Made by a program: the position numbers and the translations under genes
The notes under the pieces: generated by a model
Databases searched by the model: none
Told to the model about the DNA's origin: nothing
The model's input: the letters and a program-made list of their open reading frames with translations, nothing else
Shown here: piece after piece, positions 14,014-44,910 of the stretch
Layout: the number at the start of each line of letters is the position of its first letter
Numbering within the stretch: the first letter of the stretch is position 1
Source: an uncultured Ectothiorhodospiraceae bacterium
Lineage (GTDB): Bacteria; Pseudomonadota; Gammaproteobacteria; UBA9214
DNA length: 64,000 nucleotides
Direction: 5' to 3'
Assembly (NCBI GenBank): GCA_947258615.1
Contig: CAMYIX010000043.1
Location: forward strand, 1,825 to 65,824

Positions 14014-14148
14014 TTCACCGCAGAGACGCAGAGGACGCAGAGCACACAAAGACTAAGAATTACCAGCCAAAGCATTAACCCGAGCATCAACATTTGTCTG
14101 TGTTTTTTAAATTCTTGATCTCTGCGTCCTTTGCGTCTCTGCGGTGAG
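14014..14148. repeat. GCAGAG-type inverted-repeat element, copy A (simple form)
   Basis: Left arm ttcaccgcagagacgcagaggacgcagag (14014-14042). Right arm ctctgcgtcctttgcgtctctgcggtgag (14120-14148). An AT-rich 77-bp spacer separates them. Confidence 0.85.
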
Positions 14149-14178
14149 ATTCGAATTCCCATTAAGGAACGGCATTTC

Positions 14179-16842
14179 ATGTCTGAACCCTATGTAATCA
14201 AGATGCCCCAGCTCTCCGACACCATGACGGAAGGTGTTGTCGTCAGCTGGGAAAAGAATATCGGCGATCAAGTCAAGCGTGGCGACATTGTCGCAACGGT
14301 AGAGACCGACAAGGCCGTCATGGATGTAGAGGTGTTCCGCGACGGATTTCTGTCCGGCCCGATTGCACCGGTGGACGCCGTGGTCCCGGTGACCCACGCT
14401 ATGGGCTACCTGGTCGAATCCGCCGATGACGTGGTGCAGGGCGAGGCGGAACAGGCCGCCACGCCGAAGCCCGAAACGGCAGCGGCCGCTGCGCCGGCCG
14501 GGGCAGTCTCGGCACCGGTCACTCCCCAGGCCATTCCACCTGCTGCAGGCAGCACGGCACCGGCGCCGCGTCCGCAGGGTGGCAAGGCCACCCCGCTGGC
14601 GCGCAGGCTGGCCGGTCAGGTCAACGCCGATCTTGATCGCCTGAGTGGCACTGGCCCGGGTGGTGTGATCACGGCAGGCGATATCCAGCATGCCCCGGCC
14701 GCCTATGAGGTCGAGGTGCCGGGCAACGGACGGCCCATGAAGTCGATGGAAAAGGCCATCGCGCGCGCCATGACCACCTCGCTGACCATGCCGACCTTCC
14801 GGGTGAGTTCCCACATCCACCTGCAGACCCTGATGGCCGCCGCCAAGCAGCACGGCGTCTCGGTGACCGTGGCGATCGCGCGCGCCTGTGCGCTGGCCAT
14901 GAAGGAGCACCCCAAGATCAACTGGTGTTATCAGCCGGATGACAGGCTGATCGAGCGTGAGCAGGTCGATATCGGCATGGCGGTGGCCGCCGACGATGGC
15001 GGACTGGTCGTGCCCATCCTGCGCAATGTCGAGTCGCGCGACCTTGGTGAACTGAACAACGACTGGAAGGACCTGGTGGCGCGAGCACGCACCCGCCACT
15101 TGAACCCGGAGGAGTTCACCGGGGCCACCTTCCAGATATCCAACATGGGCATGTTCGACGTCAGCTACTTCGATGCGATTGCCACACCGGGGCTGGCGGC
15201 GATCCTGGCCATTTCCTCCAATACGGATAAGGGCAGCGCCTTCACCATCACGGCGGACCACCGGGTCATCAACGGGGCGGACGTGGCGAAATATCTCTAT
15301 TCCCTGAAGGGGCTGGTTGAACAGCCCTTCGACTGGATGGGGCCGGGTGGCCCGGCCATTCCCGAGGGCGACTGGGACTACGACGTGGTGGTAATCGGCG
15401 GCGGACCCGGTGGGGAAGACTGTGCCCGCGACCTGGTCGGCCATGGCCTGAAGGTCGCGCTGGTCAACGACTCAGCCTTCCCGGGGGGCGAATGCCTGTG
15501 GCGTGGCTGCATCCCCTCCAAGGCCTGGCGGGCGGCGGCCGATCGCATGCGCGACCGCGCCGAGGATGCCCACCTCGGTGTGACCGGGACCAACAAGGCC
15601 CGGCTGGTCTGGAAGGAGCTCGAGAAGACCCGGCGCGGTGTCCTCGAGACCCGCGGCGGCATGGCATTGAAGACCGACAAGGGCGTCAGGATCAACTATA
15701 TTCACGGTTTCGGGCAGTTTGTCGACGACCATCACCTGGCCATCCATACCTCCACCAACCAGGATGATCCGCATACCCGCGCGGCCATACCGACGGCCGA
15801 TCCGGAGAAGACCATCAGCTTCGGCTGCGCCGTGATTGCCACCGGTGCGCCGCCCTTCGTGCCGCCGATCCCCGGGGCCAGGGAAGGACTTGAAAATAAC
15901 GGCGTGCTGACCTCGGACACCGTGTGGGCTCTGGAGAGCCCGCCGAAGCGGCTCGCCGTGATCGGCGCCGGCGCCATCGGCGTGGAAATGGCGCAGATCT
16001 TCCAGGACTTCGGCAGCAGGGTCACCCTGCTGGAGGCGCAGGAGCGTATCCTGGCCGAGGTCGAGCCCGAGATCGCAAACAGCCTGGCGGCCATCCTCGC
16101 CGACGAGCCGCGCCTGGACGTGCATACCTCTGCCGCAGTGAACCGGATCTCCGGCGAACCCGGCGCCATGAAACTCGCCTATACCGATGTGCAGGGCAAG
16201 AAGCGCACCCTTACCGTGGACCATGTCATCATGGCCACCGGCAAGCGCCCGGTCCTGGACGGCCTGGGCCTGGAGGCGGCAGGCGTGGCCAGCGAGGCCG
16301 GCATTGTCACGGCCGATGCCCGCTGCCGTACCAATGTGCCGCACATCTTTGCCCTGGGTGATGTCATCGGCGGCCTGATGCTGGCGCACACGGCCGGACA
16401 CCAGGGGCGGGTATCGGCCGCCACCATCCTGGGCGAGAACATGAAGTACGACCAGGACAGGGACTGCGGCGTCATCTTCAGCCGGCCCCAGGCGGCCTTC
16501 GTGGGCCTGTCGGTCGCGCAGGCGAAGGCGCAGGGGATCGATGCCGTGGAGGTGAAGGTGCCCATGAATATCGATGCCAAGGCGATGATCAACAACGAGA
16601 CCCACGGCATGATCAAGATCGTGGCGGACAAGGCCACGCACCGGATCCTGGGGGTGCATTTCCTCGCTGACCACGCCGACACCCTGATCGGTGAGGCGGT
16701 GATGATGGTCTCCGGCAACCTGACGCTGGAACAGGTCGCCGAGGCGATCCACCCGCACCCGACCCAGACCGAACTGTTCGGCGACATGGCGCGCCGCCTG
16801 CTGTCACGCCTGCGCCGCAGCCGGAAAAAGGCGAAGGCCTGA
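14179..16842 (+). CDS. Fused dihydrolipoamide acyltransferase (E2) and dihydrolipoyl dehydrogenase (E3)
   Basis: One uninterrupted frame contains, in order: a lipoyl domain (VETDKAVMDVE), an Ala/Pro linker, a subunit-binding domain (ATPLARRLAGQVNADLDRLSGTGPGGVITAGDI), and an E2 catalytic domain ending DHRVINGADVAKYL. After a linker come the E3 FAD site DVVVIGGGPGG, the redox disulfide GGECLWRGCIPSK, the NAD site VIGAGAIGVE and the C-terminal HPHPTQTE dyad. The start was chosen at MSEPYVIKMP. Confidence 0.85.
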   Translation: MSEPYVIKMPQLSDTMTEGVVVSWEKNIGDQVKRGDIVATVETDKAVMDVEVFRDGFLSGPIAPVDAVVPVTHAMGYLVESADDVVQGEAEQAATPKPETAAAAAPAGAVSAPVTPQAIPPAAGSTAPAPRPQGGKATPLARRLAGQVNADLDRLSGTGPGGVITAGDIQHAPAAYEVEVPGNGRPMKSMEKAIARAMTTSLTMPTFRVSSHIHLQTLMAAAKQHGVSVTVAIARACALAMKEHPKINWCYQPDDRLIEREQVDIGMAVAADDGGLVVPILRNVESRDLGELNNDWKDLVARARTRHLNPEEFTGATFQISNMGMFDVSYFDAIATPGLAAILAISSNTDKGSAFTITADHRVINGADVAKYLYSLKGLVEQPFDWMGPGGPAIPEGDWDYDVVVIGGGPGGEDCARDLVGHGLKVALVNDSAFPGGECLWRGCIPSKAWRAAADRMRDRAEDAHLGVTGTNKARLVWKELEKTRRGVLETRGGMALKTDKGVRINYIHGFGQFVDDHHLAIHTSTNQDDPHTRAAIPTADPEKTISFGCAVIATGAPPFVPPIPGAREGLENNGVLTSDTVWALESPPKRLAVIGAGAIGVEMAQIFQDFGSRVTLLEAQERILAEVEPEIANSLAAILADEPRLDVHTSAAVNRISGEPGAMKLAYTDVQGKKRTLTVDHVIMATGKRPVLDGLGLEAAGVASEAGIVTADARCRTNVPHIFALGDVIGGLMLAHTAGHQGRVSAATILGENMKYDQDRDCGVIFSRPQAAFVGLSVAQAKAQGIDAVEVKVPMNIDAKAMINNETHGMIKIVADKATHRILGVHFLADHADTLIGEAVMMVSGNLTLEQVAEAIHPHPTQTELFGDMARRLLSRLRRSRKKAKA

Positions 16843-27620: not shown

Positions 27621-27905
27621 TCGCCCGATCCCGTTTCTGTTAAACGGCCCGGCCTGCATGTGCCGGGCCATCTCCCGGCAGTCCACAGCCAGTCTCACAA
27701 TCCCTCCGCTTTCCCCGTTTGTCCTGCGGAACAGCGCGCTCAATTTCCGATTTTCTGTTTTTCTGCCAACGGCTGGCATGCCCCGGTTCAGGTCCCCTGA
27801 CGCCCTTGTCTCATGTTTGAACAAGTGCGCTGGTCCAATTCAGGTTTCCAGGACTTTAGTCGTTAATGTATAGGACAAAAAAATCGTGCTGTGTAAGGGA
27901 CAATC

Positions 27906-30900
27906 ATGCGTATCTTGATCGGAGTGTTTATTATGCTGGCCGGCCTCGTTGCCGCCATCATATCTGCTTTAAAATCAATGGCTAAGCCCGAGTTCTGGCA
28001 GAGGGGCGCAGAGCGGCTGAAGGCGTATTCCCAGGCGATGGGGGAGCCGGGGACGGTTGCCGGGCAATTCGGCAGCCGGAATACGGGTGTCGACCAGAGC
28101 GCGCCCGGGGCAGCTGACGCGCAGCAGACACTGCCGCTGTTCGCGGATATTGAGCAGGAGATCAGTCAGCTGCAGGACAAGGTTCATTACCTGGACAGCG
28201 CCTACCGGGAAAGTGAGGGTCGTGCCGAGCTGCTCGAGGCCAGACTGAAGGAAATCGGCCAGCTGGATGGCGTGGTCGATGAGCGCAGGCATGAAATAAA
28301 CCAGTCGTGCGGAACAACCGATGATCCTGGTTCCACAGTAGTCATCAGCCAGGAAGGTGCGACCCCAGCGGACCTCAAGAAGCAGGCAAGCGATCAGCTG
28401 GAGATAAAGATCAAGCAGCGTGACGATGAACTCGTCGAACTGAGGGAAAAGCTGCAAGTGCTGGAAGAATTGCGTGCCCGCGAGTCCGAACGCCAGGAAA
28501 ACAAGGAACGGGAAACCGATGAACTGACATCAAAAATAGAAGAACTCAGCGCCGCATTGCAGGAAAGCGGGCAATGTGCGGGCCAGCAGCTTGAGGAAAA
28601 AAACCGGGAAATCAGGGAGCTCCAGGAGCGGTTCCAGCAGACGAAAACCGTACACCTCGAGAGAGAGAATCTGGCCAGGCAGCAACTTGATTTCAATATG
28701 CAGGAACTCAGGCAGCTTGGAGAGACTATCGAAGTCAAGGAGCAGGAAATCGTGGGTCTGCAGGGCAAGATCCATCAAATGGACCTGGCAGCGAATGAGG
28801 CCGAAGAGCGCGCGGTCCTGCTGGAAGAGAAGGAACGTCACATCAGCCGACTGCAAGGTCAGGTCCATGAACTCGATGCAGCCCTGCATCACAGTGCCGA
28901 ACGCTCCCAGCAACTCGAAACCAGCGAGCATGAGGTGGCACGGCTGGGTACCCGGGTGGTTGAGCTGGAATCTGCGCTGACTGACAGCCGGGAGCGCGTA
29001 GAGCAACTGGAGAAGAAAGATCAGGAGATCGAACACCTCAATACCGTGGTGCAGCAGAAGGCCGATCATATTTCCAGCCTCGAAGACCGGCTTGAGTTAC
29101 AGGATGCCGCCATTCAGGAAGGGAACGAGCGCGACGCCCTGCTTGAGTCCAGGGCGCGCGAGGTTATTGAGCTGCATAACCGGGTGCAGGAACTGGAAGC
29201 AATACTGCAAGACAGCCATGAACGTACCCTGCAACTGGAAGGCAAGGAACAGGAGGTAAACTCGCTGACGGCCCGGGTGCAGGAGCTTGCACGCCTCAAT
29301 GAGGTATTGCAGCAGAAGACCGATCATCTCGAGGCATTGGAGCAGCGGGTCCAGGCGCTGGATGCGGCCCTCCAGGAGGGCCATGACTATAGTCAGTTAC
29401 TGGAGGCCCGGGACCAGGAAATCGCGCGACTCGACGAGCAGGTGCAGCTACTCGAGATCAGGGAGCATGAGATCAATGCACTTAATGTCCAGGTAAAGAA
29501 GCTGGAATCCGAACTGCATGACAGCCAGGAGCGCACCCATCAGCTCGAGGCCATAGAGCAGGAAATTGTGCGTCTGAGTGAGCAGGCTCAAAACCTTGAG
29601 GGCAAGGGTGTTGAGATTGAGGAGATGACCGACCGGATAAAGGAACTGGAATCCGAGCTGCATATTACTCAGCAGCGCGCAGGGCAACTGGAGGCCGGGG
29701 AGCAGGAGATTGCGCGCCTCAATGAGACGCTGCAGAAGAAGACCAATCATATCGTGGCACTGGAGCAGCAGGTCCAGAAGCTGGATGAAGTGGTACGGGA
29801 TGGCAATGAGCATGGTCAGTTGCTGCAGATCAGGGATCAGGAGATTGCGCGGCTTGTTGAACAAACCCACAAGCTCTCCGGGCAGGCGCAGCAACTCGAG
29901 GGCAGGAATGAGGAAGTCAGGCAACTGAATAACCGGGTAGAGGAGCTTGAATCTGCCCTATCTGAGGCTGGCAAGCATGCACAGCTACTCGAGATCAAAC
30001 AGCAGGAAGTCAGCGAGCTGAATGCCAGGCTGCAGGATCTGTCAGTTGCGCTGCAGGAAAGTCAGGGCCGCGCGAAAGAAGCTGATGCCAGGAGCGAGGA
30101 AATCGCTCGCTTGAATGCACGACTCCGGGAGCTGGAAGCCGCGGTCGAGGCTGGCAATGAGCAGGCGCAGGTGCTACAGGCGAAGGAGCAAGAACTCGGC
30201 GAATTGACTGCCCGGCTCCGGGAGCTGGAAGCCGCGGTCGAGGCTGGCAATGAGCAGGCGCAGGTGCTGCAGGCGAAGGAGCAGGAGGTCGGTGAGCTCA
30301 CCGCCCGGCTGCGGGAGCTGGAAGCCGCGGTCGAGGCCGGCAATGCGCAGGCGCAGGCGTTGCAGGCGAAGGAGCAGGAGCTCGGCGGGCTCACCGCACG
30401 ATTGCAGGAGCTGGAAGCCGCGGTCGAGGCTGGTAATGCGCAGGCCCAACAGCTGGAGGTGAAGGAGCAGGAGGTCGGCGGGCTCACCGCACGATTGCAG
30501 GAGCTGGAAGCCGCGGTCGAGGCCGGTAATGCGCAGGCCCAACAGCTGGAGGTGAAGGAGCAGGAACTCGGCGAATTGACTGCCCGGCTCCGGGAGCTGG
30601 AAGCCGCGGTCGAGGTCGGCAATGCGCAGGCGCAGGTACTGCAATCGAGGGAGCAGGAGGTCGGCGAACTGACTGCACGGCTGCAGGAGCAGGTCAGGCA
30701 GCTGCAGGCCTGGGAGCAGGAAACTGCCAGTTTGCAGATGGCTGTGAGTGAGAAGGATGAGCAGATCAACGAAATCAAAGGGAAGATGCATGACCTGGCC
30801 ATCACCCTGCGCGATACCACGGCAGACGCAAAGGAGGCAGATGCCAGGCGCGAGGAAATCCTGCGCCTGAATCAACGGCTCAGGGAGTTGGAAGCCGACG

Positions 30901-33731
30901 TTGAGGCGGGCAATGCGCAGGCACAGCAGCTGCTGGCGAAGGAGCAGGAGCTCAGTGACCTGACTGCCCGGCTGAAGGAGCTGGAAGCTGCAGTCAGTGA
31001 AAAGGAAGAGTATGCCCGGCAGCTGGATGCAAGAGACCAGCAGATTGCGCAGCTCGGCATGGAAGTCGAGGCAAAGGGTCATGAGATCGCCAAGATGCAC
31101 GGTCAAATCCAGGACCTGGATGCGGCGGCGCAGCAAAGCGAAGCCATGGCCCGTTGCATTGAAGAGAAGGACCAGCAAATCGCCCGACTGCATTCCCAGG
31201 TACAGAGGCTGGGAACAGCTGTGCGTAAGAGCGCGGACCGTGTCCAGGTACTCGAGGAAAGGGAACACCTGATCGAGCAACTGAAAGGTGAGGTCAGGAG
31301 GCTGGAGGAAGGCAAGGATGAACTTGAACTGAGCCGGGAGGAGATGGCCCGGATGCAGGTGCGGCTTGAAGAGATGAGTGAGTCAGCACAAGCCGCTACC
31401 GATCAGGCGCAGCAGATGGAAATCAGGGAACGTGAAGCCAACGAGCTGCTTAACCGGGTAGAGGAACTGGAAAGTCAGCTGCATGAGAGTCATGAACGTG
31501 CTCAGCAGCTGCAGGCGAAGGAGCAGGAAGTTGGCGAGCTCACCACCCGGCTGCGGGAGCTGGAAGCCGCCGTCGAGGCCGGCAATTCACAGGCACAGGC
31601 GCTGCAGGCGAAGGAGCAGGAGCTCGGCGAACTCACCGCCCGGCTGCAGGAGCTGGAAGCCGCGGTCGAGGCCGGCAATGTGCAGGCGCAGGTGCTGCAG
31701 GCGAAGGAGCAGGAAGTTGGCGAACTCACCGCCCGCCTGCGGGAGCTGGAAGCCGCGGTCGAGGCCGGCAATGCGCAGGCACAGCAGCTGCAGGCGAAGG
31801 AGCAGGAAGTTGGCGAACTCACCACCCAGCTGCAGGAGCTGGAAGCCACCGTCGAGGCCGGCAATGCACAGGCACAGGCGCTGCAGGCGAAGGAGCAGGA
31901 GCTCGGGGAAGTCACTGCCCGGCTGCGAGAGCTGGAAGCCGCGGTCGAGGCGGGCAACGCGCAGGCACAGCAGCTGCAGGCGAAGGAACAGGAACTCGGC
32001 GAACTCACCGCCCGGCTGCAGGAGCTGGAATCGGCTGCCGCCGAGGGTGGCGACCATGCGCAGCTGCTGGAAGTCAAGCAGCAGGAAGTCAGCCGGCTGA
32101 CAGGGGAACTCGAGGAATTATCTGTCGAGCTGCAGGGCAGTCAGGAGCGTGCGCAGCAACTTGAAGCCAGGGAGCAGGAGATTTCACGTCTGGAGGAAAG
32201 GGCCAGGGAACTGGAGGCGGCACTGCAAGACAGCACTGAACGGGAACAACTGCTTGAGGCCAGGGAGCACGAAGTGACTGAACTCAAGGGCAAGCTCCAG
32301 GAGATGGCTGTGGTCCTGCAAGACAAGGAATCCCTTTCCGGAGGGCTGGCGGCTGTAACCCAGAATCAGATGGATGAGCAGGATATCGCTGTCAATTCTG
32401 TAGAGGAAGAGAAGTTGATGGAGATCAGCAAGCAGGACCCATTGACGGGTCTGTTCAATCGGCAGCATTTCATGCAGCTACTGGAAGAAAGCCTGGCCCA
32501 GGACAACGCGAGAAACGGCGACCAGGTGTTGATCTATATATTGCTGGAAAACTTCAAGTCAGTCCGCGATGAAATCGGGATTAACGGCAGTGATCTGGTT
32601 CTGCGTGAAACTGCTGCGCAGATCGCCTCCAATTGTGGTGAACAGGATCTAATCGCCCGTTTCAGCGACACTGTCTTTGTGGTGTTGCATCGTGGCGAAC
32701 ATCTGAGTGAGACCCGGGAGCTTTCCGAAAAAATGTTGCATGCTATCGAGCACCATGTCTTCGATGCTGAAGGAAGCTCAGTGATGGTTAAACTCAGTAT
32801 CGGTTTGTGCCCTGTCAGTGAGCATACCAGTACCGCGCAGGATGTGATTACACGTGCCGATCTGGCGTGTGAGGTTGCCAGCTCGTCCGAGGGGTCAAGA
32901 ATTCATTCCCACGACGTGACTGTTGACGAGCAGATGAGCCAGGACCATGAGGGCGAGTGGGATGTGATGATAAGGAATACGCTTGATGAAGAGCGCTTTT
33001 ACCTTGTCTACCAACCCATCGTCAGTCTCAACGGCGATGTCAGTGAGCGTTACGAGGTGCTGCTCAGGATCGTCGACGATGAGGGGCAGGTGGTTCTGCC
33101 AAGCCAGTTCCTGTCGATCGCAGACAAGATCGGACTGACCCATGAAATCGATCGTTGGGTCATTGATACCGCTATTACGACACTGGCAGAGCTGCACCGT
33201 GAGGGGAGGGACACAACGTTTTTTGTGAAGATATCCGGTAAAACACTGGCCGACAGCGAACTGCCTCTGTGGATCCATGAAAAGATCAGCGAATGCCAGG
33301 TCAAGACGGGGAATATCGTTTTCGAGATTACCGAGGCGGTTGCGCTCAAGGACCTCAGAAACACCATGCACTTCGTCAATGCCATGAACAAACTGGGCTG
33401 CAAGGTGGCGCTGGAACACTATGGTCGCGCTAACCAGCCGCAGCTGCTCAAGCACCTGTCCGTGGATGTCCTCAAGATCGATGGAAGCCTGATCGAGAAT
33501 CTGAGCACCAACAAGGAAAATCAGGTCATCGTGAAGCGCATCATCGAGGCTGCCAACAGCCACGATATCAAGTGTACAGCTGAACGCGTGGAAGAGGCCC
33601 ATGATCTCGGGATGCTCTGGCAGTACGGTGTCGAGTTTGTCCAGGGCAATTTTGCCCAGATACCGAGCAAGGACCTGGATTACAATTTCGAGGGGGATTC
33701 CGCCGAGGAGGAATCGACGATCTATATGTGA
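27906..33731 (+). CDS. Giant membrane-anchored coiled-coil protein with C-terminal degenerate GGDEF and EAL domains
   Basis: 1,941-aa uninterrupted ORF. It has one N-terminal TM helix and about 1,400 aa of E/Q/L/A/R-rich heptad-type sequence. The GGDEF-fold domain (PLTGLFNRQHF) carries RFSDTVF in place of GGDEF. The EAL domain keeps EVLLR, FEITE and KIDGS, but has EHYG in place of DDFG. Confidence 0.85.
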   Translation: MRILIGVFIMLAGLVAAIISALKSMAKPEFWQRGAERLKAYSQAMGEPGTVAGQFGSRNTGVDQSAPGAADAQQTLPLFADIEQEISQLQDKVHYLDSAYRESEGRAELLEARLKEIGQLDGVVDERRHEINQSCGTTDDPGSTVVISQEGATPADLKKQASDQLEIKIKQRDDELVELREKLQVLEELRARESERQENKERETDELTSKIEELSAALQESGQCAGQQLEEKNREIRELQERFQQTKTVHLERENLARQQLDFNMQELRQLGETIEVKEQEIVGLQGKIHQMDLAANEAEERAVLLEEKERHISRLQGQVHELDAALHHSAERSQQLETSEHEVARLGTRVVELESALTDSRERVEQLEKKDQEIEHLNTVVQQKADHISSLEDRLELQDAAIQEGNERDALLESRAREVIELHNRVQELEAILQDSHERTLQLEGKEQEVNSLTARVQELARLNEVLQQKTDHLEALEQRVQALDAALQEGHDYSQLLEARDQEIARLDEQVQLLEIREHEINALNVQVKKLESELHDSQERTHQLEAIEQEIVRLSEQAQNLEGKGVEIEEMTDRIKELESELHITQQRAGQLEAGEQEIARLNETLQKKTNHIVALEQQVQKLDEVVRDGNEHGQLLQIRDQEIARLVEQTHKLSGQAQQLEGRNEEVRQLNNRVEELESALSEAGKHAQLLEIKQQEVSELNARLQDLSVALQESQGRAKEADARSEEIARLNARLRELEAAVEAGNEQAQVLQAKEQELGELTARLRELEAAVEAGNEQAQVLQAKEQEVGELTARLRELEAAVEAGNAQAQALQAKEQELGGLTARLQELEAAVEAGNAQAQQLEVKEQEVGGLTARLQELEAAVEAGNAQAQQLEVKEQELGELTARLRELEAAVEVGNAQAQVLQSREQEVGELTARLQEQVRQLQAWEQETASLQMAVSEKDEQINEIKGKMHDLAITLRDTTADAKEADARREEILRLNQRLRELEADVEAGNAQAQQLLAKEQELSDLTARLKELEAAVSEKEEYARQLDARDQQIAQLGMEVEAKGHEIAKMHGQIQDLDAAAQQSEAMARCIEEKDQQIARLHSQVQRLGTAVRKSADRVQVLEEREHLIEQLKGEVRRLEEGKDELELSREEMARMQVRLEEMSESAQAATDQAQQMEIREREANELLNRVEELESQLHESHERAQQLQAKEQEVGELTTRLRELEAAVEAGNSQAQALQAKEQELGELTARLQELEAAVEAGNVQAQVLQAKEQEVGELTARLRELEAAVEAGNAQAQQLQAKEQEVGELTTQLQELEATVEAGNAQAQALQAKEQELGEVTARLRELEAAVEAGNAQAQQLQAKEQELGELTARLQELESAAAEGGDHAQLLEVKQQEVSRLTGELEELSVELQGSQERAQQLEAREQEISRLEERARELEAALQDSTEREQLLEAREHEVTELKGKLQEMAVVLQDKESLSGGLAAVTQNQMDEQDIAVNSVEEEKLMEISKQDPLTGLFNRQHFMQLLEESLAQDNARNGDQVLIYILLENFKSVRDEIGINGSDLVLRETAAQIASNCGEQDLIARFSDTVFVVLHRGEHLSETRELSEKMLHAIEHHVFDAEGSSVMVKLSIGLCPVSEHTSTAQDVITRADLACEVASSSEGSRIHSHDVTVDEQMSQDHEGEWDVMIRNTLDEERFYLVYQPIVSLNGDVSERYEVLLRIVDDEGQVVLPSQFLSIADKIGLTHEIDRWVIDTAITTLAELHREGRDTTFFVKISGKTLADSELPLWIHEKISECQVKTGNIVFEITEAVALKDLRNTMHFVNAMNKLGCKVALEHYGRANQPQLLKHLSVDVLKIDGSLIENLSTNKENQVIVKRIIEAANSHDIKCTAERVEEAHDLGMLWQYGVEFVQGNFAQIPSKDLDYNFEGDSAEEESTIYM
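30117..30674 (+). repeat. In-frame tandem array 1: 6 x 93 bp (31 aa)
   Basis: Units start at 30117, 30210, 30303, 30396, 30489 and 30582. Consensus ARL(R/Q)ELEAAVEAGN(A/E)QAQ.L..KEQE(L/V)G(E/G)LT. Confidence 0.9.
31503..32102 (+). repeat. In-frame tandem array 2: five 93-bp units (31545-32009) plus partial or degenerate flanking units
   Basis: It has the same 31-aa consensus as array 1. I checked the phase at 31545 and 32010. Confidence 0.9.
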
Positions 33732-33796: not shown

Positions 33797-33846
33797 TGAA
33801 CTGGCGCTAAAATGCCTGTATAAGGTATTTGCCAAGGGGCAGGGCG

Positions 33847-34455
33847 ATGTGTAAACACTACCCGGTAACGGATGTGATGCTAAGGTTCATGATGTGTTTC
33901 GTGTTATTGCCCTCACTGGCGATAGCGGCTGTGGTGCGCAGTGCGGACGAGGAGACCGGCCTGGTGAAGTGGCACTTCACAGCAGGTGATCTGGAGATAG
34001 AACTGATTCAGCGGCTGCCGGACCAGACGCGCGGCTTCTTCCTGGCGCGCGGATTCTCCAGCGCGGTGGCCAATGAAATCGCCACCCGTTGCGTGTTCCA
34101 GACGATTGTACGCAACCGCAGCGAGTCGCCTGACGGCAAACCGGTCACGATTGATCTTGGTGAATGGCGCATCGTCCATGCCGGTACCCGCCGTCCTATC
34201 CGCCTCAAGGAGGACTGGATGGCTTCATGGCCGGAAGACAGGGTCAGCCAGGCATCCAGGCTCGCATTCCGCTGGGCGACCTTGCCGACCACGCAGGAGT
34301 TTCTGCCGGGGGACTATAACTGGGGCATGACGGCCTATGGACTGCCGCCGGGCGCCGTATTTGACCTGAACCTGGTCTGGCAGCAGGACGATCAGACAAA
34401 GGCCGGCTGGATACGCGGTATCGAATGTCCACCCGATGTGGATCGGCTGAAATGA
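33847..34455 (+). CDS. Hypothetical secreted protein
   Basis: AAGGGG RBS before ATG at 33847 (tracked ORF starts at 33829). Signal-like MLRFMMCFVLLPSLAIAA. The stop overlaps the next gene's start (ATGA). No family recognised. Confidence 0.6.
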   Translation: MCKHYPVTDVMLRFMMCFVLLPSLAIAAVVRSADEETGLVKWHFTAGDLEIELIQRLPDQTRGFFLARGFSSAVANEIATRCVFQTIVRNRSESPDGKPVTIDLGEWRIVHAGTRRPIRLKEDWMASWPEDRVSQASRLAFRWATLPTTQEFLPGDYNWGMTAYGLPPGAVFDLNLVWQQDDQTKAGWIRGIECPPDVDRLK

Positions 34456-34964: not shown

Positions 34965-35489
34965 CGCAAGGAGACCGGGTTCCGGATCACTGTGTCAAGG
35001 GGAGTGTGCAATGTCAGAGTGGATCAGGTAATCCGGCCCCCTTGCGGTCATTAGACTATAGCGGGTTTCAGGTTTCAGTCCTTGTCTGTGTTCCTCTCTT
35101 GGTTATTGCCTGGTATCCAGTGTCCGACAATCGCTGCGGCGGCACTGCGACCCAGGTCACGATTCCCTTGTCACGCCCCTTCGGCAGCTTGTCCCGGTCA
35201 GCAGCGGTGATTTCCAAAGGAACACAATGCCTGTTATTCCGATTGCAGGCATCGGCTGACAAGTATCAGCATTATCAATGCATTACCCTGTCTGGAGTTG
35301 GACCTCAGGACAGGTCTGCCATGCCGGCGATGGCCATTGATAACCGGGGTCCTTGCTGCAACCGGTATGGGTATTATTTTTCCTTCAAATCTAAAGATTT
35401 AAGCCTGCAAGGCCGATCAGAACAGCATGGGGATATGCCTCGAGCCGGGTGTGCAAATTCGGGTGAAAAATGAAACCAACCTTATACCA

Positions 35490-36377
35490 ATGACCTGGAA
35501 GTCAATCATTGACAGATTACTTTACAGCCTGATCAGCGTCTGCCTGACCCTGTTACTTGTTGCCTGCTCATCCATAGATGAGGGCGGGCAGCTTGCCACG
35601 TTGCGTATCGGCCTCTTGCCGGACGAAAGTGAAGCGGAGCTTTACAGGCGATATACACCTCTGTTCGAGTTTCTCGAGAAGGAAACCGGGATACCCATTG
35701 AGCTCACCATTCCGGATTCCTATGATGAACTTGTAGAACTGTTCTCGGGCGGGTCGGTGGATCTGGCGTATTTTGGCGGTTATACCTTCGTAAAAGCCAA
35801 TATCGACCATGGCGCCGTGCCCCTGGTTATGCGTGACGTGGACATCAATTTCACCAGCGTCCTGATTGCAAATGGCAACAGCCAGGTGAAGGACTTCACG
35901 GAAACAGTGGGAAAGCGCTTTGCTTTCGGCTCAAGACTCTCGACCTCTGGACATCTGATGCCACGGCACTTCATGATTTCGGAAAAGAATATTGACCCGG
36001 AGAAACACTTCAGCAGCGTGCGTTACTCAGGTCTTCATGATCAAACCGCCTACTGGGTGCGCGACGGGGAGGTGGATCTGGGGGTGGCCAATGGCCGAAT
36101 CATTCGAAAGATGCTACAGGACGGGCGGTTGAGGCCGCAGGACATACGGATTATCTGGGAAACTCCGCCCTATTCCGATTATGTCTGGGCGGTGCAAGCG
36201 GGAGTCACACGAAAAGACAGGGATAAGATCAGGCAGGCCTTTATGAAACTCTCTGTCGACAATCCGTCACACGCAGTCATCCTGCATAACATCGATGCCG
36301 GTGGTTTCCTTCCAGCCAGCGAACAGGATTTTATCGATTTGAAGAAAATCGCTATTAGTATGGAGGCTGGCGAATGA
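35490..36377 (+). CDS. PhnD-like periplasmic substrate-binding lipoprotein
   Basis: MTWKSIIDRLLYSLISVCLTLLLVACSS (lipobox), then LRIGLLPDESEAELYRRYTPLFEFLEKETGIPIELTIPDSYDELVELFSGGSVDLAYFGG. The start is uncertain (tracked ORF starts at 35427). Confidence 0.7.
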   Translation: MTWKSIIDRLLYSLISVCLTLLLVACSSIDEGGQLATLRIGLLPDESEAELYRRYTPLFEFLEKETGIPIELTIPDSYDELVELFSGGSVDLAYFGGYTFVKANIDHGAVPLVMRDVDINFTSVLIANGNSQVKDFTETVGKRFAFGSRLSTSGHLMPRHFMISEKNIDPEKHFSSVRYSGLHDQTAYWVRDGEVDLGVANGRIIRKMLQDGRLRPQDIRIIWETPPYSDYVWAVQAGVTRKDRDKIRQAFMKLSVDNPSHAVILHNIDAGGFLPASEQDFIDLKKIAISMEAGE

Positions 36378-39300
36378 GCATGCCTGGTATCTTTTTCTGC
36401 CTCACTACCCTCTCGATACGTCACTATCTGTACGCACTTGTTACCGTGATCAGTTTAATGGTGCTTTCCATAGTCGCCTATATGAGCTGGCAGCACCATC
36501 TGTACAAGGAAAAGGAATATATTTCCAATCATTATCACCTGGAGACGGTTTTATTGGCCACCAGGGTCAAGGAAGATCTGCATGGCATTGAAGCGCACTA
36601 TGCCAAACACAGAACTCGCGATCAGGCTACGGGAGGCCATCCCGTGGATGATGGATACTACAATCAGACAATATATCGACTTCAAATAAACTTTGCCGAG
36701 ATAATGCGATTGTACGAGATGTTCCGTTTCGTGCATGTCGAACAGGATTCCTATATGCCCATCCTTGTCAAAGGAGAGGGGCAGCTGGAGCGTATTAGTC
36801 AAGGGCTGCTCGCGGCGGACACGATGGGCCACTCAATGAGCAGCCTGTCGGCCTTTGCGCTCAGCATGGAGCAACTCAGGCGACTGCACTCGATTGACCA
36901 TAAAGATATGTATGTGCTGTCGGAGAGGCAGCGTATTCAGAGTCTCAGGAACTTGTCTGTTATTGCTTTTTTCATGCTGGTACTTGGTTTCCCGATAGTA
37001 AGAAAGATATTAGCGCAGTACAGGATCATGGTAGACCGGGAGCAGCGGAGCGAAACGGAATTGCGTCAGAGTGAGAATCGTTTCAGGTCATTGGCCAGCT
37101 CCGCACCTGTCGGTATTTTCCGTAGCAGGATGGACGGTGCATGGATTTACGTTAACGAGCAATGTTCCGAATTGATCGGACTTTCGCGAGATGCCTGCCT
37201 GGGGCAGGGCTGGAAGCGGCAACTGCGCGCCGATTATATGGGTGCTGCCGAGGCATCCTGGCTGCATATGATCGATGGATGTCATTCCTTGTCGGATGAG
37301 TACGCCTTTATTCGTGAAAATGGTAATCCCGTGTGGGTGATATGCCAGGCAAGGCCGGAGAAGGATGCCGCAGGTAATGTCATCGGTTACATAGGGACCC
37401 TGACCGATGTGACTGCACGTATCCGGGCCGAGAATGAAGTCAGACAGCGCAAGATGGCAATGGAAACCATTTTCAATTCTCTCCCGGACATTTTTTTCCG
37501 CATGGGAAAAGACGGGACCATTCTCGATTACCAGGCGAAAAACGACTCGGACCTGTATGTCGAACCGGAATGCTTCATTGGTAAGCGGATGCAGGATGTG
37601 TTGCCTGCGGATGTAGGCCAACTGTTCATGGAACACATGGGCTTGATAGGCGGGCCGGGGGAGACCGCTGCCTTTGAGTATGAACTCATGGTCAACCAGG
37701 TGACCACCCCGTACGAGGCGCGACTGGTTTGTCTCGGTGAAACAGACGAGATAATCGCCCTGGTACGGGATATTTCCGATAGGCTGCGCGCGGATCAACA
37801 ATTGCAGCAGGCCGCCATTGTCTATGAAAATACGGTGGAAGGTATATTTATTGCAGACGGTAAAGGCATTGTTGTGAGCGTCAATCGTGCATTCACGGAT
37901 ATTACCGGTTACGGGGCCGATGAGGTCCTGGGGAAAGGCTCCGGAATACTGGATTCAGGGCGTCATGATTCCGAATTCTCCAAATCGATGTGGAGCCAGC
38001 TCGACGAACAGAGTCACTGGCAGGGGGAGATCTGGAGCCGGCGCAAGGGCGGTGAGTCATTCCCTGCCTGGCTCAGCATCAACAGTGTCCCGGATTCATC
38101 CGGAAAGCTCTGTAACTACGTGGCGATCTTCTCGGATATTACAGAAATGAGGCGATCGCAGGACGAGCTTGAACATCTGGCGCGTCATGACGTCCTCACC
38201 GATCTGCCCAACCGGCTTCTGTTCGAATCGCGCCTGGAGCATGCTATTCATCACGCCCATCGAAGTGGCGAGTTCCTGGCGGTGATGTTTCTTGATCTGG
38301 ATCGCTTCAAGATTGTCAATGACAGCCTTGGGCATGCGGCCGGTGATTCACTGTTGCAGCAGGTGGCCACCCGGTTGACTTCAGTGGTCAGAAAAGAGGA
38401 TACCGTCTCCAGGATGGGGGGTGACGAATTCACTTTCCTTCTGGAGGATGTCTCATCCCGGGGCGCTGCAAAGATTGCCGAGAAATGTATCCACGCCCTT
38501 AAACAGCCAGTTGAATTCGGGGACAGGGAGATCTACCTGTCTGGCAGCGTGGGTATCAGCCTTTTCCCTGAGGATGGCGAGGATGTCGACACCCTGGTCC
38601 GTAATGCGGATGCAGCCATGTACAAGGCAAAAGCTGCTGGCCGTGACAATTATCAGTTCTATACCAACGAGCTGACTGTCAATGCCCTGGAGCAGGTCTC
38701 GATGGAGGCCCAGCTGCGGCGCGCGCTTGAGCGCAATGAATTCCGTTTAGTATACCAGCCGCAAGTAGAGATGCCCTCGGGGAAACTCATTGGTGTCGAG
38801 GCATTGCTGCGTTGGGAGAGCCCCGAGTACGGTCTGGTTGGCCCCGACCGCTTTATCCCCCTGCTTGAGGATAGCGGATTGATCGTGCCGGTGGGTGAGT
38901 GGGTCCTCGAGACGGCTTGCAGGCAGGCAAGGGACTGGTTGGATATGGGTTGGACGGATTGCAACATGGCCGTCAATGTCGCAGGAGAGCAGATCACCCG
39001 CAGCGACATTGTCGGCCTGGTGCACCAGATCCTGGACCGTACAGGGCTCCCGGCGGAGCGTCTGGAACTTGAAATGACCGAGACATTCGCCATGTCCGAT
39101 CCGGAAAACACCATTGGCATCTTTCAGGAGCTTCGTGACCACGGTATTCGCATCGCCATCGACGATTTCGGGACAGGTTATTCATCACTTGCCTATCTCA
39201 AGCGCCTGCCGATCGACAGGCTCAAGATCGACCGGTCTTTTATCAGGGATATTCCGGGAGACGTCGACGATGAGGCCATTACCCAGGCCATTATCGCCCT

Positions 39301-39487
39301 GGGCCAGTCGCTGCGACTTGATGTGATCGCGGAGGGCGTCGAGACCGCGGACATGGTCGATTTTCTTGTCAGCCATGATTGCCATTATGGGCAGGGATTC
39401 TTTTTTGGAAAGCCGATGGCGGCCGTCGCCATCCAGGAACTGCTCGATCTGGACCTCGAGATCATCCGCAATGCGGCATCCAGCTAG
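36374..39487 (+). CDS. Membrane sensor diguanylate cyclase/phosphodiesterase (2 TM, periplasmic loop, PAS x3, GGDEF, EAL)
   Basis: The ATG overlaps the upstream stop by 4 nt. The motifs are intact: RMGGDEFTFLL, EALLRWE, ELEMTE, DDFGTGYSSLAYLKRLPIDRLKIDRSF, AEGVE. Confidence 0.9.
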   Translation: MSMPGIFFCLTTLSIRHYLYALVTVISLMVLSIVAYMSWQHHLYKEKEYISNHYHLETVLLATRVKEDLHGIEAHYAKHRTRDQATGGHPVDDGYYNQTIYRLQINFAEIMRLYEMFRFVHVEQDSYMPILVKGEGQLERISQGLLAADTMGHSMSSLSAFALSMEQLRRLHSIDHKDMYVLSERQRIQSLRNLSVIAFFMLVLGFPIVRKILAQYRIMVDREQRSETELRQSENRFRSLASSAPVGIFRSRMDGAWIYVNEQCSELIGLSRDACLGQGWKRQLRADYMGAAEASWLHMIDGCHSLSDEYAFIRENGNPVWVICQARPEKDAAGNVIGYIGTLTDVTARIRAENEVRQRKMAMETIFNSLPDIFFRMGKDGTILDYQAKNDSDLYVEPECFIGKRMQDVLPADVGQLFMEHMGLIGGPGETAAFEYELMVNQVTTPYEARLVCLGETDEIIALVRDISDRLRADQQLQQAAIVYENTVEGIFIADGKGIVVSVNRAFTDITGYGADEVLGKGSGILDSGRHDSEFSKSMWSQLDEQSHWQGEIWSRRKGGESFPAWLSINSVPDSSGKLCNYVAIFSDITEMRRSQDELEHLARHDVLTDLPNRLLFESRLEHAIHHAHRSGEFLAVMFLDLDRFKIVNDSLGHAAGDSLLQQVATRLTSVVRKEDTVSRMGGDEFTFLLEDVSSRGAAKIAEKCIHALKQPVEFGDREIYLSGSVGISLFPEDGEDVDTLVRNADAAMYKAKAAGRDNYQFYTNELTVNALEQVSMEAQLRRALERNEFRLVYQPQVEMPSGKLIGVEALLRWESPEYGLVGPDRFIPLLEDSGLIVPVGEWVLETACRQARDWLDMGWTDCNMAVNVAGEQITRSDIVGLVHQILDRTGLPAERLELEMTETFAMSDPENTIGIFQELRDHGIRIAIDDFGTGYSSLAYLKRLPIDRLKIDRSFIRDIPGDVDDEAITQAIIALGQSLRLDVIAEGVETADMVDFLVSHDCHYGQGFFFGKPMAAVAIQELLDLDLEIIRNAASS

Positions 39488-39619
39488 TAGCTGAAAACCC
39501 ACTGCCGGATACTCAAATCAATCAATCCGAGCGCAGGACAGCGCCTGTCGTGCTGTTTCTCGTAGACAGACGCGTGGGCGGCGGTTGTTCCGTTAATAGC
39601 CTGGGGGCCAATTGATCAT

Positions 39620-42629: not shown

Positions 42630-43238
42630 TCAGCAGCGCTCCTGGTTGCGCCAGCGCCGTGCGATCCAGTAGTCGGCACTGAAGTACCTGCCGGCACCAA
42701 GGTAGAGTAGCGCCAGCAGCATGATGAAATAGGTGGCGGCAAATTCGATACCGTTTTTCAGAATGGTGATGCCCCCGGTCTCGGTCAACCAGCTGTAGTT
42801 ACCATGTTCCCTGAGCAGACTCCTGGCAGCCTCCCGGCGCGTGTTGGCCTCCTCGATGAGGTCGGTTCGCCATTCCCAGGGGACAGTGAGGTCGGTCTCG
42901 GGCAGGACATGCCAGCCGTTATCCCAGTGTGCGGTCGTGGCGGCGACTAGCATGGTAAACATCAGGGGGATGACCGCCCAGCGGACTGCCAGTCCGGCCA
43001 GCAGTGCAATACCGCCCAGTAGCTCTGTCAGGGCGGCAACATAGACCATGAGCTCCGGTGCCGGGATGCCCAGCGACTCGAAATAGGGGCCGAGGTGTTC
43101 CGCATGTTTCAGCTTGTTACTGCCCGCCAGAATAAAGATCGGGGCCAGGAATAATCGCAGTGCCAGCGGGGCCAGAAAGTCCAGCGGGCGGATGACGCGT
43201 TCCAGCAGGCTCTGCAGGCAGTTCATGAATCCGATCAT
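42630..43238 (-). CDS. DoxX-family membrane protein, last gene of the MNIO cluster (HvfX/bufferin-operon DoxX-like)
   Basis: 202 aa. LALRLFLAPIFILAGSNKL...LTELLGGIALLAGLAVRW, with 4 TM helices. Confidence 0.8.
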   Translation of the reverse strand: MIGFMNCLQSLLERVIRPLDFLAPLALRLFLAPIFILAGSNKLKHAEHLGPYFESLGIPAPELMVYVAALTELLGGIALLAGLAVRWAVIPLMFTMLVAATTAHWDNGWHVLPETDLTVPWEWRTDLIEEANTRREAARSLLREHGNYSWLTETGGITILKNGIEFAATYFIMLLALLYLGAGRYFSADYWIARRWRNQERC

Positions 43239-43289
43239 GGCTGTTCTCCCGGTTGTGGTTTTTTGTTGGTGCAGCGTCCGGTAGCCGGA

Positions 43290-44078
43290 TCAATGCCGTC
43301 TGGTGCCGGGGATGATGTCCTTCTCATGCAAGCCCCTGAAGATTGCCCGGCCACCCTCGACGACGACTTCGGGTTGCGGATGCGATAGCTCCCGGGCAAT
43401 GATCAGCAACAGTTCTTCGCCCGTGGCCCCGGGCTCCGATTCGACCAGTTCCAGCAACCGACGGGTGACCGGGTTGATCTCGATAAAGCCGACCTCGTCC
43501 CGGCGGTCGCGGTACACGACCAGGTAGGTCGGGGTATCCCCCGGCGCGTCCGGCCGGAAGTCGGGGCCGATGCGATGGACGGGATAGCGGTAGGCGAGAT
43601 GCCAAGCCAGCGGAGACAGCATCGGGCTACCCGTCATCAGATCACCCTCGGGGTCGAACTGTTCCGGGTCGAGCCGTTCATCCGCCACGGAGAGGGCCAG
43701 TTCCACCCACTCGTAGTGTGCCAGCTCCTGCAGGAAGGGCGGGTCCTCCGGGTGTTCGCTGCGCTCATGCTCCAGGTAGTTGAGGAATTCGCGCGGCATC
43801 TCCAGGAACAGCGGTGTATGTGCGCGGTGCCGGTTGAAGTAGTCCCTGATCAGGGCATGCCAGGCTGCATCATCCAGGATCCTGCGCAGGACCGGGAAGG
43901 TGCCGGACATGAAGCCCTCGACATTGTTGTAGAACAGCTCACGATAGATGCCCATGCGCCGGTCTTCGATATCTGCCGGTGCGGACCGGTGCTCCGGATC
44001 GCGTATATGGGCAGCGAATTCATACTGCCTGCGGACAAAATCCGGGAGTTCAGTTCTGGAGTGCGATGCCATGGCCAC
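43290..44078 (-). CDS. DUF2063-type partner protein of the MNIO (HvfC/BufC/MbnC-role-like)
   Basis: 262 aa. Its start overlaps the 3' end of the DUF692 gene by 29 nt. The assignment rests on position and a general resemblance to DUF2063 N-terminal sequences. Confidence 0.7.
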
Positions 44079-44910
44079 AGGCCGCCTTCCATTTGTTCTG
44101 CAATGCCTTGATGTGACTCATCTCGGCGAGCAGTTCCGGGAGCGGCGGGATATTGAAGTCGCGTTCCAGCAGGGTGGGAACCACGCCGAAATGTTCGTAG
44201 GCGGTTTCCAGCAGGTCCCAGACCGGGTCGATGACCGGGGCGCCGTGGGTGTCCACCTTGAGGTCGTCGGCCTCGTCGTAGTGTCCGGCCATGTGAAAAT
44301 AGACGACGCGCCCGGCGGGTAATGCCTTGAGAAACCGTTCTGCGTCATAGCGATGGTTGATGCTGTTGACGTAGATGTTGTTCACGTCCAGCAGCAGGTC
44401 ACAGTCGGCCTCGGACAGGACGGCGTTGATGAAGTCGATCTCGTCCATCTCCTTGCCCGGGGCCGCGTAGTAGGAAACATTCTCCATGGCGATGCGCCGT
44501 TCCAGGATGTCCTGAACGCGCCGGATGCGGCCGGCGACATAATGGACGGCCTCTTCGGTAAACGGGATGGGCAGCAGATCGTAGAGATGACCATCGTCGC
44601 TGCAGTAACTCAGGTGTTCGGTGTAAAAGCGGATATTGTGTTCATCGAGAAAGCGCTTGACCCTGAACAGGAAGGTCTCGTCCAGGGGGGCGGGGCTGCC
44701 GATGGACAGGGACAGTCCGTGCGCCACAAACGGGTAGCGTTCGGTAAACCAGCTGAAGTCCTTGCCCGGCTTGCCGCCGACGCCGATCCAGTTTTCCGGG
44801 GCCACCTCGAAGAAATCGACCGCATCCGGCGGGTTGTCCCGCAGCGGACCCATCAGGGTCCGCCGCAGTCCAAGTCCCGCCCCGGCGACCGGGTAGTGTG
44901 TTGCAGTCAC
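44050..44910 (-). CDS. DUF692 / UPF0276 multinuclear non-heme iron oxidase (MNIO; MbnB/HvfB/BufB-like)
   Basis: GLGLRR...FFEVAPENW...HGLSLSIG...YTEHLSY...ENVSYY...[14 protein letters not shown]...FHMAGH...VDTHG, 286 aa. Confidence 0.9.

Follow-up and report, generated by a model that had tools for sequence, protein, structure and literature searches.

The window analyzed here is a stretch of 64,000 nt of DNA from an uncultured Ectothiorhodospiraceae bacterium (GenBank assembly GCA_947258615.1, contig CAMYIX010000043.1), and our subject is a giant gene within it, an open reading frame (ORF) of 1,941 amino acids (aa) plus stop codon on the + strand (27906..33731). An original prediction, made from the DNA letters, had described its product as a membrane-anchored coiled-coil rod with degenerate GGDEF-EAL domains, a candidate receptor of cyclic di-guanosine monophosphate (c-di-GMP) without turnover, and this sequence-based description is supported by all computational tests run. 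The single uninterrupted frame was found as described, with an ATG start and no internal stop. The gene is preceded by an intergenic region of 285 nt (27621..27905, +, read from the sequence), in which the purine-rich AAGGGA, 5 nt ahead of the ATG, probably serves as the ribosome-binding site. Transcription is likely to start from a promoter of the gene's own; no sigma-70-like match was found on the + strand within 27621..27905.

The protein, all features of which are given here with their coordinates on the + strand, begins with a single transmembrane helix (aa 3–22, 27912..27971; ILIGVFIMLAGLVAAIISAL). This helix is the sole hydrophobic segment, as had been proposed: the 19-residue Kyte-Doolittle mean is 2.77, and no other segment of that length exceeds 1.6. 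One Arg precedes the helix, and the 15 residues after it carry a net charge of +2. Because of this positive flank, the protein body is predicted to be cytoplasmic, with the N-terminus out. A signal peptide was considered instead of an anchor and ruled out: the hydrophobic stretch comprises 20 residues, the c-di-GMP on which GGDEF-EAL modules act is cytoplasmic, and the periplasm has no room for a rod of about 200 nm, the length described below. The anchor is followed by a conserved juxtamembrane motif, KSMxKPEFWxxGAERLKAYSQ (aa 23–44, 27972..28037), found by orthologue alignment, in which the columns K23, S24, F30, W31, and G34-L38 are invariant. Next come a variable linker rich in G, P, Q, and A (aa 45–80, 28038..28145), with 14–34% identity and insertions or deletions among orthologues, and a conserved first coiled-coil segment (aa 81–125, 28146..28280) with the consensus IExEIxQLxxKVHYLDxAYRESExRAxxLExRLKE. 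A variable, non-helical insert containing Pro141 and Pro154 (aa 126–160, 28281..28385) was delimited from the sequence and by orthologue comparison.

The bulk of the protein is a rod, predicted to be alpha-helical (aa 161–1478, 28386..32339), of about 40 units of 31 aa, free of proline. It is connected to a short pre-GGDEF helix by a linker (aa 1473–1497, 32322..32396) that is probably flexible, judging from an AlphaFold2 predicted local distance difference test (pLDDT) value below 50. The C-terminal part consists of a degenerate GGDEF domain (aa 1509–1660, 32430..32885; Pfam, 9e-25), a FimX-type EAL domain (aa 1688–1917, 32967..33656; Pfam, 1e-54), and a conserved acidic tail (GDSAEEESTIYM, aa 1926–1941, 33681..33728), which is missing from the consensus of the canonical 693-aa clade described below. 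Besides GGDEF and EAL, the only Pfam matches were to coiled-coil families, on the repetitive middle, and searches of Pfam and NCBIfam gave no match to a REC or PAS domain in the 1,941-aa protein.

A homology search with the full-length protein was swamped by coiled-coil words (19 matches, the best of them 32% identical), and it was repeated with the C-terminal 452 aa. Among solved structures, the best match to this part was the GGDEF-EAL module of Pseudomonas aeruginosa FimX (PaFimX; 4j40), with E=2.8e-83 and 35% identity over both domains. FimX of Xanthomonas citri (XcFimX) came second (1.3e-55, 28% identity), ahead of the active enzymes RbdA and MorA and of LapD. In a large protein collection, the module is 48–55% identical to hundreds of metagenomic proteins of about 693 aa, and both of these relatives that were examined (P0026 and P0068) have the architecture REC-PAS-GGDEF-EAL. 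The same order of domains characterizes FimX (PMC11656802).

The neighbor-joining tree of the GGDEF-EAL module, calculated with 200 bootstraps, gave a consistent picture. The giant protein and its close relatives formed a clade in 200 of 200 replicates, which was joined by P0024, a partial, coil-bearing sequence, in 182. This clade, P0024, the 693-aa clade, and P0001, a coil protein of 1,191 aa, were found together in all 200 replicates, and the addition of PaFimX and XcFimX yielded a clade apart from other GGDEF-EAL proteins in 197. An AlphaFold2 model of residues 1370–1941 had a mean pLDDT of 78.8, and the EAL domain predicted in it fits the FimX EAL structures, on which it superposes with TM-scores of 0.90–0.92. 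With these results, it is very probable that the C-terminal module belongs to the FimX family by homology. The original prediction had cited FimX by analogy and had stated that no characterized family could be assigned. The likeness to FimX turned out to be one of homology, with the module clustering inside the family; the second statement still holds for the N-terminal anchor and the rod, but no longer for the module.

A grouping of coil-bearing proteins only was recovered in just 39 of 200 replicates; the rod of P0001, which consists of 28-aa units with a period of 3.52, may have been acquired independently. The P0001 protein, a more distant coil-bearing FimX relative, has no obvious transmembrane helix. 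Downstream of its gene lie one of the HD-GYP type (DUF3391, HD_5) and another that encodes a GGDEF-EAL protein, and the three make up a small c-di-GMP cluster (L033, 515-6822).

The residues of both domains point to a receptor rather than an enzyme. At the GGDEF site, RFSDTVF is found instead of R-x-GGDEF (RFGDSIF in PaFimX, RFGEHSF in XcFimX), and at the I-site, GEQD stands in place of RxxD. To the extent that a sequence can tell, this rules out cyclase activity as well as binding at the I-site. The EAL domain has retained Q1703, E1717 and L1719 (EVL), R1721, D1749, E1807 and E1810 (FEITE), K1857 (KIDGS), E1896 (AERVE), and Q1913-G1914. Changed are the metal-binding Asn, which is K1775, and the Asp-Asp pair, which is E1837-H1838. 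Thus, the set of an active EAL domain (E, N, E, E, D, D, K, E, Q) is incomplete, with the Asn and both Asp substituted by K, E, and H. Both K1775 and H1838 are invariant in a 28-sequence alignment of coil-type and canonical relatives, which argues for a selected non-catalytic ligand site rather than for decay. All of the motifs on which the first description drew (RFSDTVF, GEQD, EVLLR, VKIS, FEITE, ALEHYGRA, KIDGS, AERVE, and QG) are present, and the PLTGLFNRQHF start of the GGDEF domain lies at nt 32439. One of them had been misread: AERVE was counted among the changed positions, but neither of its glutamates is lost, and RbdA, an active phosphodiesterase, reads AEFVE at this site.

In FimX, c-di-GMP is contacted by L477, R479, D507, E654, and Y673, and F652 stacks on the guanine (PMC3527489). 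Four of these six contacts (L477, R479, D507, and E654) are kept in the giant protein, and its EAL domain would, judging from these residues, bind c-di-GMP without meaningful turnover. The same set of residues has to be weighed for the alternative that the protein is an active, possibly weak or regulated, c-di-GMP phosphodiesterase, which is tethered to the membrane for local lowering of c-di-GMP. The catalytic residues E1717, E1807, E1810, K1857, E1896, and Q1913 are present, more than PaFimX keeps; the Glu at the first Asp position could in principle bind metal; and some groups have reported that FimX is a weak phosphodiesterase (PMC3527489, PMC11656802). However, Lys in place of the metal-binding Asn and His in place of the second Asp are found throughout the subfamily without exception, the changed positions belong to the ten that are considered indispensable for catalysis by EAL domains (PMC3527489), and the module groups with receptor-type FimX, not with active enzymes such as RbdA. 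A phosphodiesterase is, in our judgment, decidedly improbable.

The rod had been described as almost entirely heptad-type sequence, built from dozens of copies of a module of about 31 aa. This was correct for most of its length, with a residue identity at lag 31 of 0.375 versus a background of about 0.15, harmonics at 62 and 93, and about 40 copies of the unit detected over about 1,100 residues by a hidden Markov model (HMM) of the unit; it was not correct for residues 126–160, the insert with Pro and Gly mentioned above. In the region of residues 81–1480, E (18.6%), L (13.4%), Q (12.6%), A (12.2%), and R (7.5%) together account for 64% of the residues, and no proline occurs between residues 155 and 1500. 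Spacings of the HMM units that differ from 31 residues are mostly off by 7 or 14, as is expected if the heptad phase must be kept. The hydrophobic periodicity has one dominant peak at 3.446 residues, that is, 9 cycles per 31 residues, with a power of 20.8, whereas the maximum in 200 shuffled sequences was 2.3. The 31/9 peak was also seen outside both of the near-identical arrays described below, and in the orthologues. Within the unit, positions 4, 7, 11, 14, 18, and 28 are strong core positions, and 21/22 (G, S, or N), 25 (A), and 30/31 are weak ones. From this core profile, each 31-aa unit consists of four heptads and a three-residue stammer, which corresponds to a period of 3.45 residues.

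AlphaFold2, run on the single sequence without an alignment, predicted residues 701–959 as one unbroken helix (pLDDT 83), and thus the EAGN motif is not predicted to be a helix breaker. A coiled coil rises by 0.148 nm per residue, and the approximately 1,320 residues of the rod would span roughly 195 nm if fully extended. A stammer causes overwinding of the helix, and the majority of the known coiled coils that depart from the heptad have a period of more than 3.5 (PMC4786415). Therefore, a regular 31/9 rod is unusual.

Several matches of the rod to known coiled-coil families are, in our view, compositional. The NCBIfam family SpiroCoCo (NF047515) reached a score of 149.5, versus a cut-off of 125, but this was added up over 8 separate stretches of the repetitive rod. 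Likewise, the matches to SMC, Rad50, SbcC, BLOC1_2, MAD, and tropomyosin were distributed over multiple stretches, were confined to the rod, and did not include the globular domains of these families. For SMC, Rad50, and SbcC, the scores were far under the cut-offs and covered coiled-coil stretches only; no ATPase domain was found.

Two parts of the rod are encoded by near-identical 93 nt repeats identified by Tandem Repeats Finder: array 1 (30112..30690) with 6.2 copies and 86% matches, and array 2 (31503..32089) with about 6 copies and 86–87% matches. Long ORFs of up to 368 aa are present on the − strand and in the other + frames at 30062-31280 and 31502-32100, inside these arrays. Most likely, they are by-products of GC-rich, stop-poor repeats and not genes.

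A scan of species-representative genomes yielded three close orthologous loci (L001, L002, and L003), all of them in metagenome-assembled genomes (MAGs) of uncultured Ectothiorhodospiraceae. With the window, the survey of orthologues and their lengths that had been suggested thus comprises four loci, which encode proteins of about 1,486 to 1,941 aa. The proteins of the window (1,941 aa) and of L003 (1,775 aa) are intact; those of L001 (about 1,740 aa) and L002 (about 1,486 aa) each have one frame break. The identity to the window protein is highest for the EAL domain (84–91%) and the C-terminal tail (75–100%), followed by the anchor with the juxtamembrane motif (residues 1–45, 76–84%), the GGDEF domain (62–71%), and the first coiled-coil segment (58–69%), which is above the rest of the rod (11–68%). 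Array 1 is mostly missing from L001 and L002, and array 2 is mostly missing from L002 and L003. Both arrays are lineage-specific expansions. Units have been gained and lost in the rod, so that this fast-evolving part differs in length among the orthologues while its periodic pattern is kept, and the strongest purifying selection acts on the EAL domain.

The architecture is rare. For the N-terminal 125 aa, one true homologue cluster was found among 1.84 billion representatives. A metagenome scan with an alignment of the N-terminal region retrieved only two real loci, on two contigs of one Joint Genome Institute (JGI) sample, and the scan with a single N-terminal sequence retrieved nothing. So far, the architecture is limited to a few uncultured Ectothiorhodospiraceae-like genomes and these two metagenome contigs. 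In the literature, we found no description of a FimX-type module on a transmembrane coiled-coil rod.

The length of the ORF might be questioned in view of its repeats, if it had arisen by expansion or collapse of repeats during assembly or if the gene were a decaying pseudogene. The exact protein sequence is absent from a collection of 15 billion proteins, and the orthologues in L001 and L002 are each interrupted once, at a repeat junction inside the rod. Against an artefact or a pseudogene, the frame is open over 5.8 kb in DNA of about 60% GC, the L003 orthologue is intact, the EAL domain is conserved, and the halves of the split orthologues are otherwise open to the end. Furthermore, the giant gene contains no exact repeat of at least 60 nt, and between its rod units, 499 codon positions show synonymous and 656 show non-synonymous differences; these findings speak against an assembly artefact and in favor of selection acting on the protein. 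The two frame breaks are probable short-read assembly errors, and the probability that the length or the gene itself is spurious appears negligible.

The pattern of conservation also bears on the role of the rod. An alternative to a receptor on a tether is a mainly structural, cytoskeleton-like or polar-landmark protein, similar to the coiled-coil-rich TipN of Caulobacter or Scy and FilP of Streptomyces, which would form filaments or a matrix at the membrane and would carry the FimX-type module as a regulatory appendage, through which assembly or the recruitment of partners would respond to c-di-GMP. A helix that runs without interruption for some 1,300 residues and bears a regular hydrophobic stripe is consistent with such a protein, and the conserved anchor and first coiled-coil segment could be interaction sites. 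In addition, coiled-coil rods on GGDEF-EAL modules occur in the unrelated proteins P0005, P0006, and P0011. However, the fast evolution of the rod and the coming and going of arrays of about 200 aa suit a spacer better than a lattice with lateral contacts, and selection is strongest on the EAL domain. Thus, we regard a mainly structural function as unlikely.

The three proteins just mentioned represent a separate, uncharacterized family of metagenomic sequences of 1,400–1,600 aa with a PAS-like N-terminus, a coiled-coil rod of 850–1,000 aa, a GGDEF domain, and an EAL domain. Their GGDEF site is altered (KSDDEF or RGEDEF); the EAL domain is intact in P0011 (DDYGTG) and has one change at the DD site in P0005 and P0006 (DRFGSG). 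All three fall outside the FimX clade. Long rods on non-FimX GGDEF-EAL modules therefore exist, and the combination of a rod with a c-di-GMP module is not unique as an idea.

The independent presence and absence of the two arrays of about 200 aa, each gained or lost on one side only, is in keeping with a parallel, in-register oligomer and speaks against an antiparallel hairpin. With in-register pairing, a gain or loss of an array would automatically be matched in the partner chain. An SMC-like antiparallel hairpin was ruled out on two grounds: the arrays come and go independently in the relatives, and the anchor and the receptor are situated at opposite ends.

The giant gene is embedded in a conserved gene order comprising PurT, two unknown ORFs, YceI, the giant gene, a 208-aa ORF, and an AhpC/TSA-family gene. 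The 208-aa ORF (33829-34455, +) is located directly downstream of the giant gene in four of four genomes, with 76–77% identity. Its product has an N-terminal hydrophobic, signal-like segment and no Pfam match. The window contains many housekeeping genes, namely those for hydantoinase B, asparagine synthase, an M17 peptidase, 2-oxoacid dehydrogenase, ArgG, PurT, Rnf, endonuclease III, MetG, an Mrp/NUBPL-type ATPase, dCTP deaminase, PurN, a PurM-like protein, and Hda. Pilus, flagellar, or chemosensory genes were not found in the 64 kb.

A second GGDEF-EAL protein is encoded nearby, a PAS-GGDEF-EAL sensor of 1,037 aa (36374-39487) with an intact GGDEF with RxxD site, EALLR, DDFGTG, and EGVE. It had been reported as adjoining and catalytically intact; the motifs are indeed intact, but the gene lies 2.6 kb away, four ORFs downstream. 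Its start is overlapped by a gene for a phosphonate-binding-type periplasmic protein (35427-36377), and the two genes lie in a stretch of lower GC content (34965-39600, 50–53% versus 60–65% in the flanks). The pair is missing from L002 and L003, where the AhpC/TSA-family gene abuts an Na+/H+ exchanger. It is probably present in L001, which ends within the binding-protein gene, so that only the start of this gene is visible. The pair appears to be a variable insertion and is not a conserved partner of the giant gene; because of its absence from L002 and L003, the adjacency carries no functional weight, and a functional link between the giant protein and the intact sensor was ruled out.

Two further loci in the window have unusual features. 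An ORF of 903 aa (14131-16842, +) encodes an E2 acyltransferase with lipoyl, E3-binding, and catalytic domains together with a complete E3 dihydrolipoamide dehydrogenase (Pyr_redox_2 and dimerization domain). It follows the genes for E1 alpha (12020-13012) and E1 beta (13013-13993), and such a fusion is unusual in a 2-oxoacid dehydrogenase operon. On the − strand, a cassette at 42630-44910 encodes an MbnB/TglH/ChrH (DUF692) enzyme, a DUF2063/NGO1945-type protein, and a DoxX membrane protein; it resembles gene pairs for peptide modification (ribosomally synthesized and post-translationally modified peptides, RiPPs) or DUF692-DUF2063 gene pairs.

Among characterized proteins, FimX of P. aeruginosa (PA4959) is the closest to the C-terminal part of the giant protein. 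A member of the FimX family would be expected to bind c-di-GMP with sub-micromolar to micromolar affinity. The two proteins share a homologous dual degenerate GGDEF-EAL module, the EVL motif, most of the c-di-GMP contact residues, and the short helix ahead of GGDEF, which reads EEKLMEISKQDPLTG in the giant protein and EEKLREVSSQDPVTG in PaFimX. They differ in that the giant protein, which is 2.8 times longer, has no REC or PAS domain but a transmembrane helix and a rod of about 1,300 aa, as well as the extra conserved acidic tail. The metal site is also different, with K and E-H in the giant protein, H and S-Q in PaFimX, and R and E-Q in XcFimX.

The similarity to LapD, the second analogy drawn originally, is much weaker than that to FimX. 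LapD is likewise an inner-membrane protein with a degenerate GGDEF-EAL module that binds c-di-GMP via its EAL domain, and LapD structures were recovered in the fold search. However, the two transmembrane helices, the periplasmic output domain, and the HAMP domain of LapD are all missing from the giant protein, and the score with the NCBIfam LapD family (NF045673) was 156 versus a cut-off of 1020. LapD is a poor model for the giant protein, and inside-out signaling as in LapD was ruled out for a protein without a periplasmic domain. The score with CsrD (NF008281), 157 versus a cut-off of 663, does not place the protein in that family either.

The nearest conceptual parallel is the TipF/TipN pair of Caulobacter. 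TipF is anchored in the membrane, contains a coiled coil, and organizes a polar machine; its EAL domain, which is catalytically inactive, makes it a c-di-GMP receptor. Its partner TipN is a membrane-anchored, long coiled-coil landmark protein. In the giant protein, the anchor, the rod, and the receptor are parts of one polypeptide, whereas TipF spans the membrane with two helices, has a coiled coil that is short, lacks a GGDEF domain, and functions with the flagellum of an alphaproteobacterium. A specific sequence relation between the giant protein and TipF or TipN was not found. Very long, proline-free helical rods with a regular non-heptad repeat are also known from the Streptomyces proteins Scy and FilP. 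The rod of the giant protein differs in being anchored to the membrane, in carrying a signaling module, and in its period of 3.45, which is below 3.5.

Taken as a whole, we read the giant protein as a catalytically inactive, membrane-tethered c-di-GMP receptor of the FimX family on a coiled-coil tether, and we assign a probability of about 0.6 to this reading. The single transmembrane anchor and the rod of about 1,300 residues would substitute for the canonical REC-PAS half, which brings FimX of P. aeruginosa to the cell pole. The chains would pair in parallel and in register, with the anchor in the inner membrane and the whole body in the cytoplasm. The rod would act less as a specific docking surface than as a flexible tether or spacer, keeping the receptor and whatever it binds within about 200 nm of the anchor. 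The output might be the control of type IV pilus assembly via the ATPase PilB or the adaptor PilZ, as in Pseudomonas and Xanthomonas; this is suggested by the family only. In P. aeruginosa, FimX has a role with PilB and PilZ, and its REC-PAS half is required for correct localization (PMC11656802). Close to the beginning of the EAL domain, the giant protein and its canonical relatives keep a Trp that aligns with one in XcFimX. The latter residue may be W445, with the numbering unconfirmed, which is among the PilZ contact residues (PMC11656802), and it is a weak hint only. On the basis of the family, a role in type IV pilus function is possible, though less likely than not.

Several observations weigh against the reading as a tethered FimX-type receptor. 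Two of the six FimX contacts are changed, F652 to R and Y673 to N (D in X. citri FimX). Two of the three orthologues from MAGs are split by a frame break in the rod. The AlphaFold2 models are monomers, and no tool gave the oligomeric state or the strand orientation of the rod. Finally, there are no type IV pilus genes in the window or at the orthologous loci. To our knowledge, fimX of P. aeruginosa is likewise unlinked to pil genes.

A more elaborate function of the rod can also be envisaged, in which it is a c-di-GMP-controlled tether or ruler. The parallel, unusually overwound, and perfectly regular 31/9 coil would then place the receptor at a defined, evolutionarily tunable distance, at most about 200 nm, from the inner membrane or the pole. 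The receptor might carry the pilus motor ATPase, and the architecture would replace both localization by REC and chemosensory inputs. Alternatively, the rods could form a c-di-GMP-responsive polar matrix. We consider these versions rather unlikely.

The rod of the giant protein is a rare natural long coiled coil with a period below 3.5, and this could be of interest to the structural biology and the design of coiled coils. FimX is the best-studied EAL-type c-di-GMP receptor, and the route of its localization is debated, with the REC domain, PilG/PilH, and PdeR under discussion. What is new here is that a membrane anchor and a rod, which may reach about 200 nm, appear to have taken the place of the entire half of FimX devoted to localization and sensing. 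Should the variant protein still act on the pilus motor, the GGDEF-EAL half alone would be the functional core, and localization would be a problem that can be solved by tethering.

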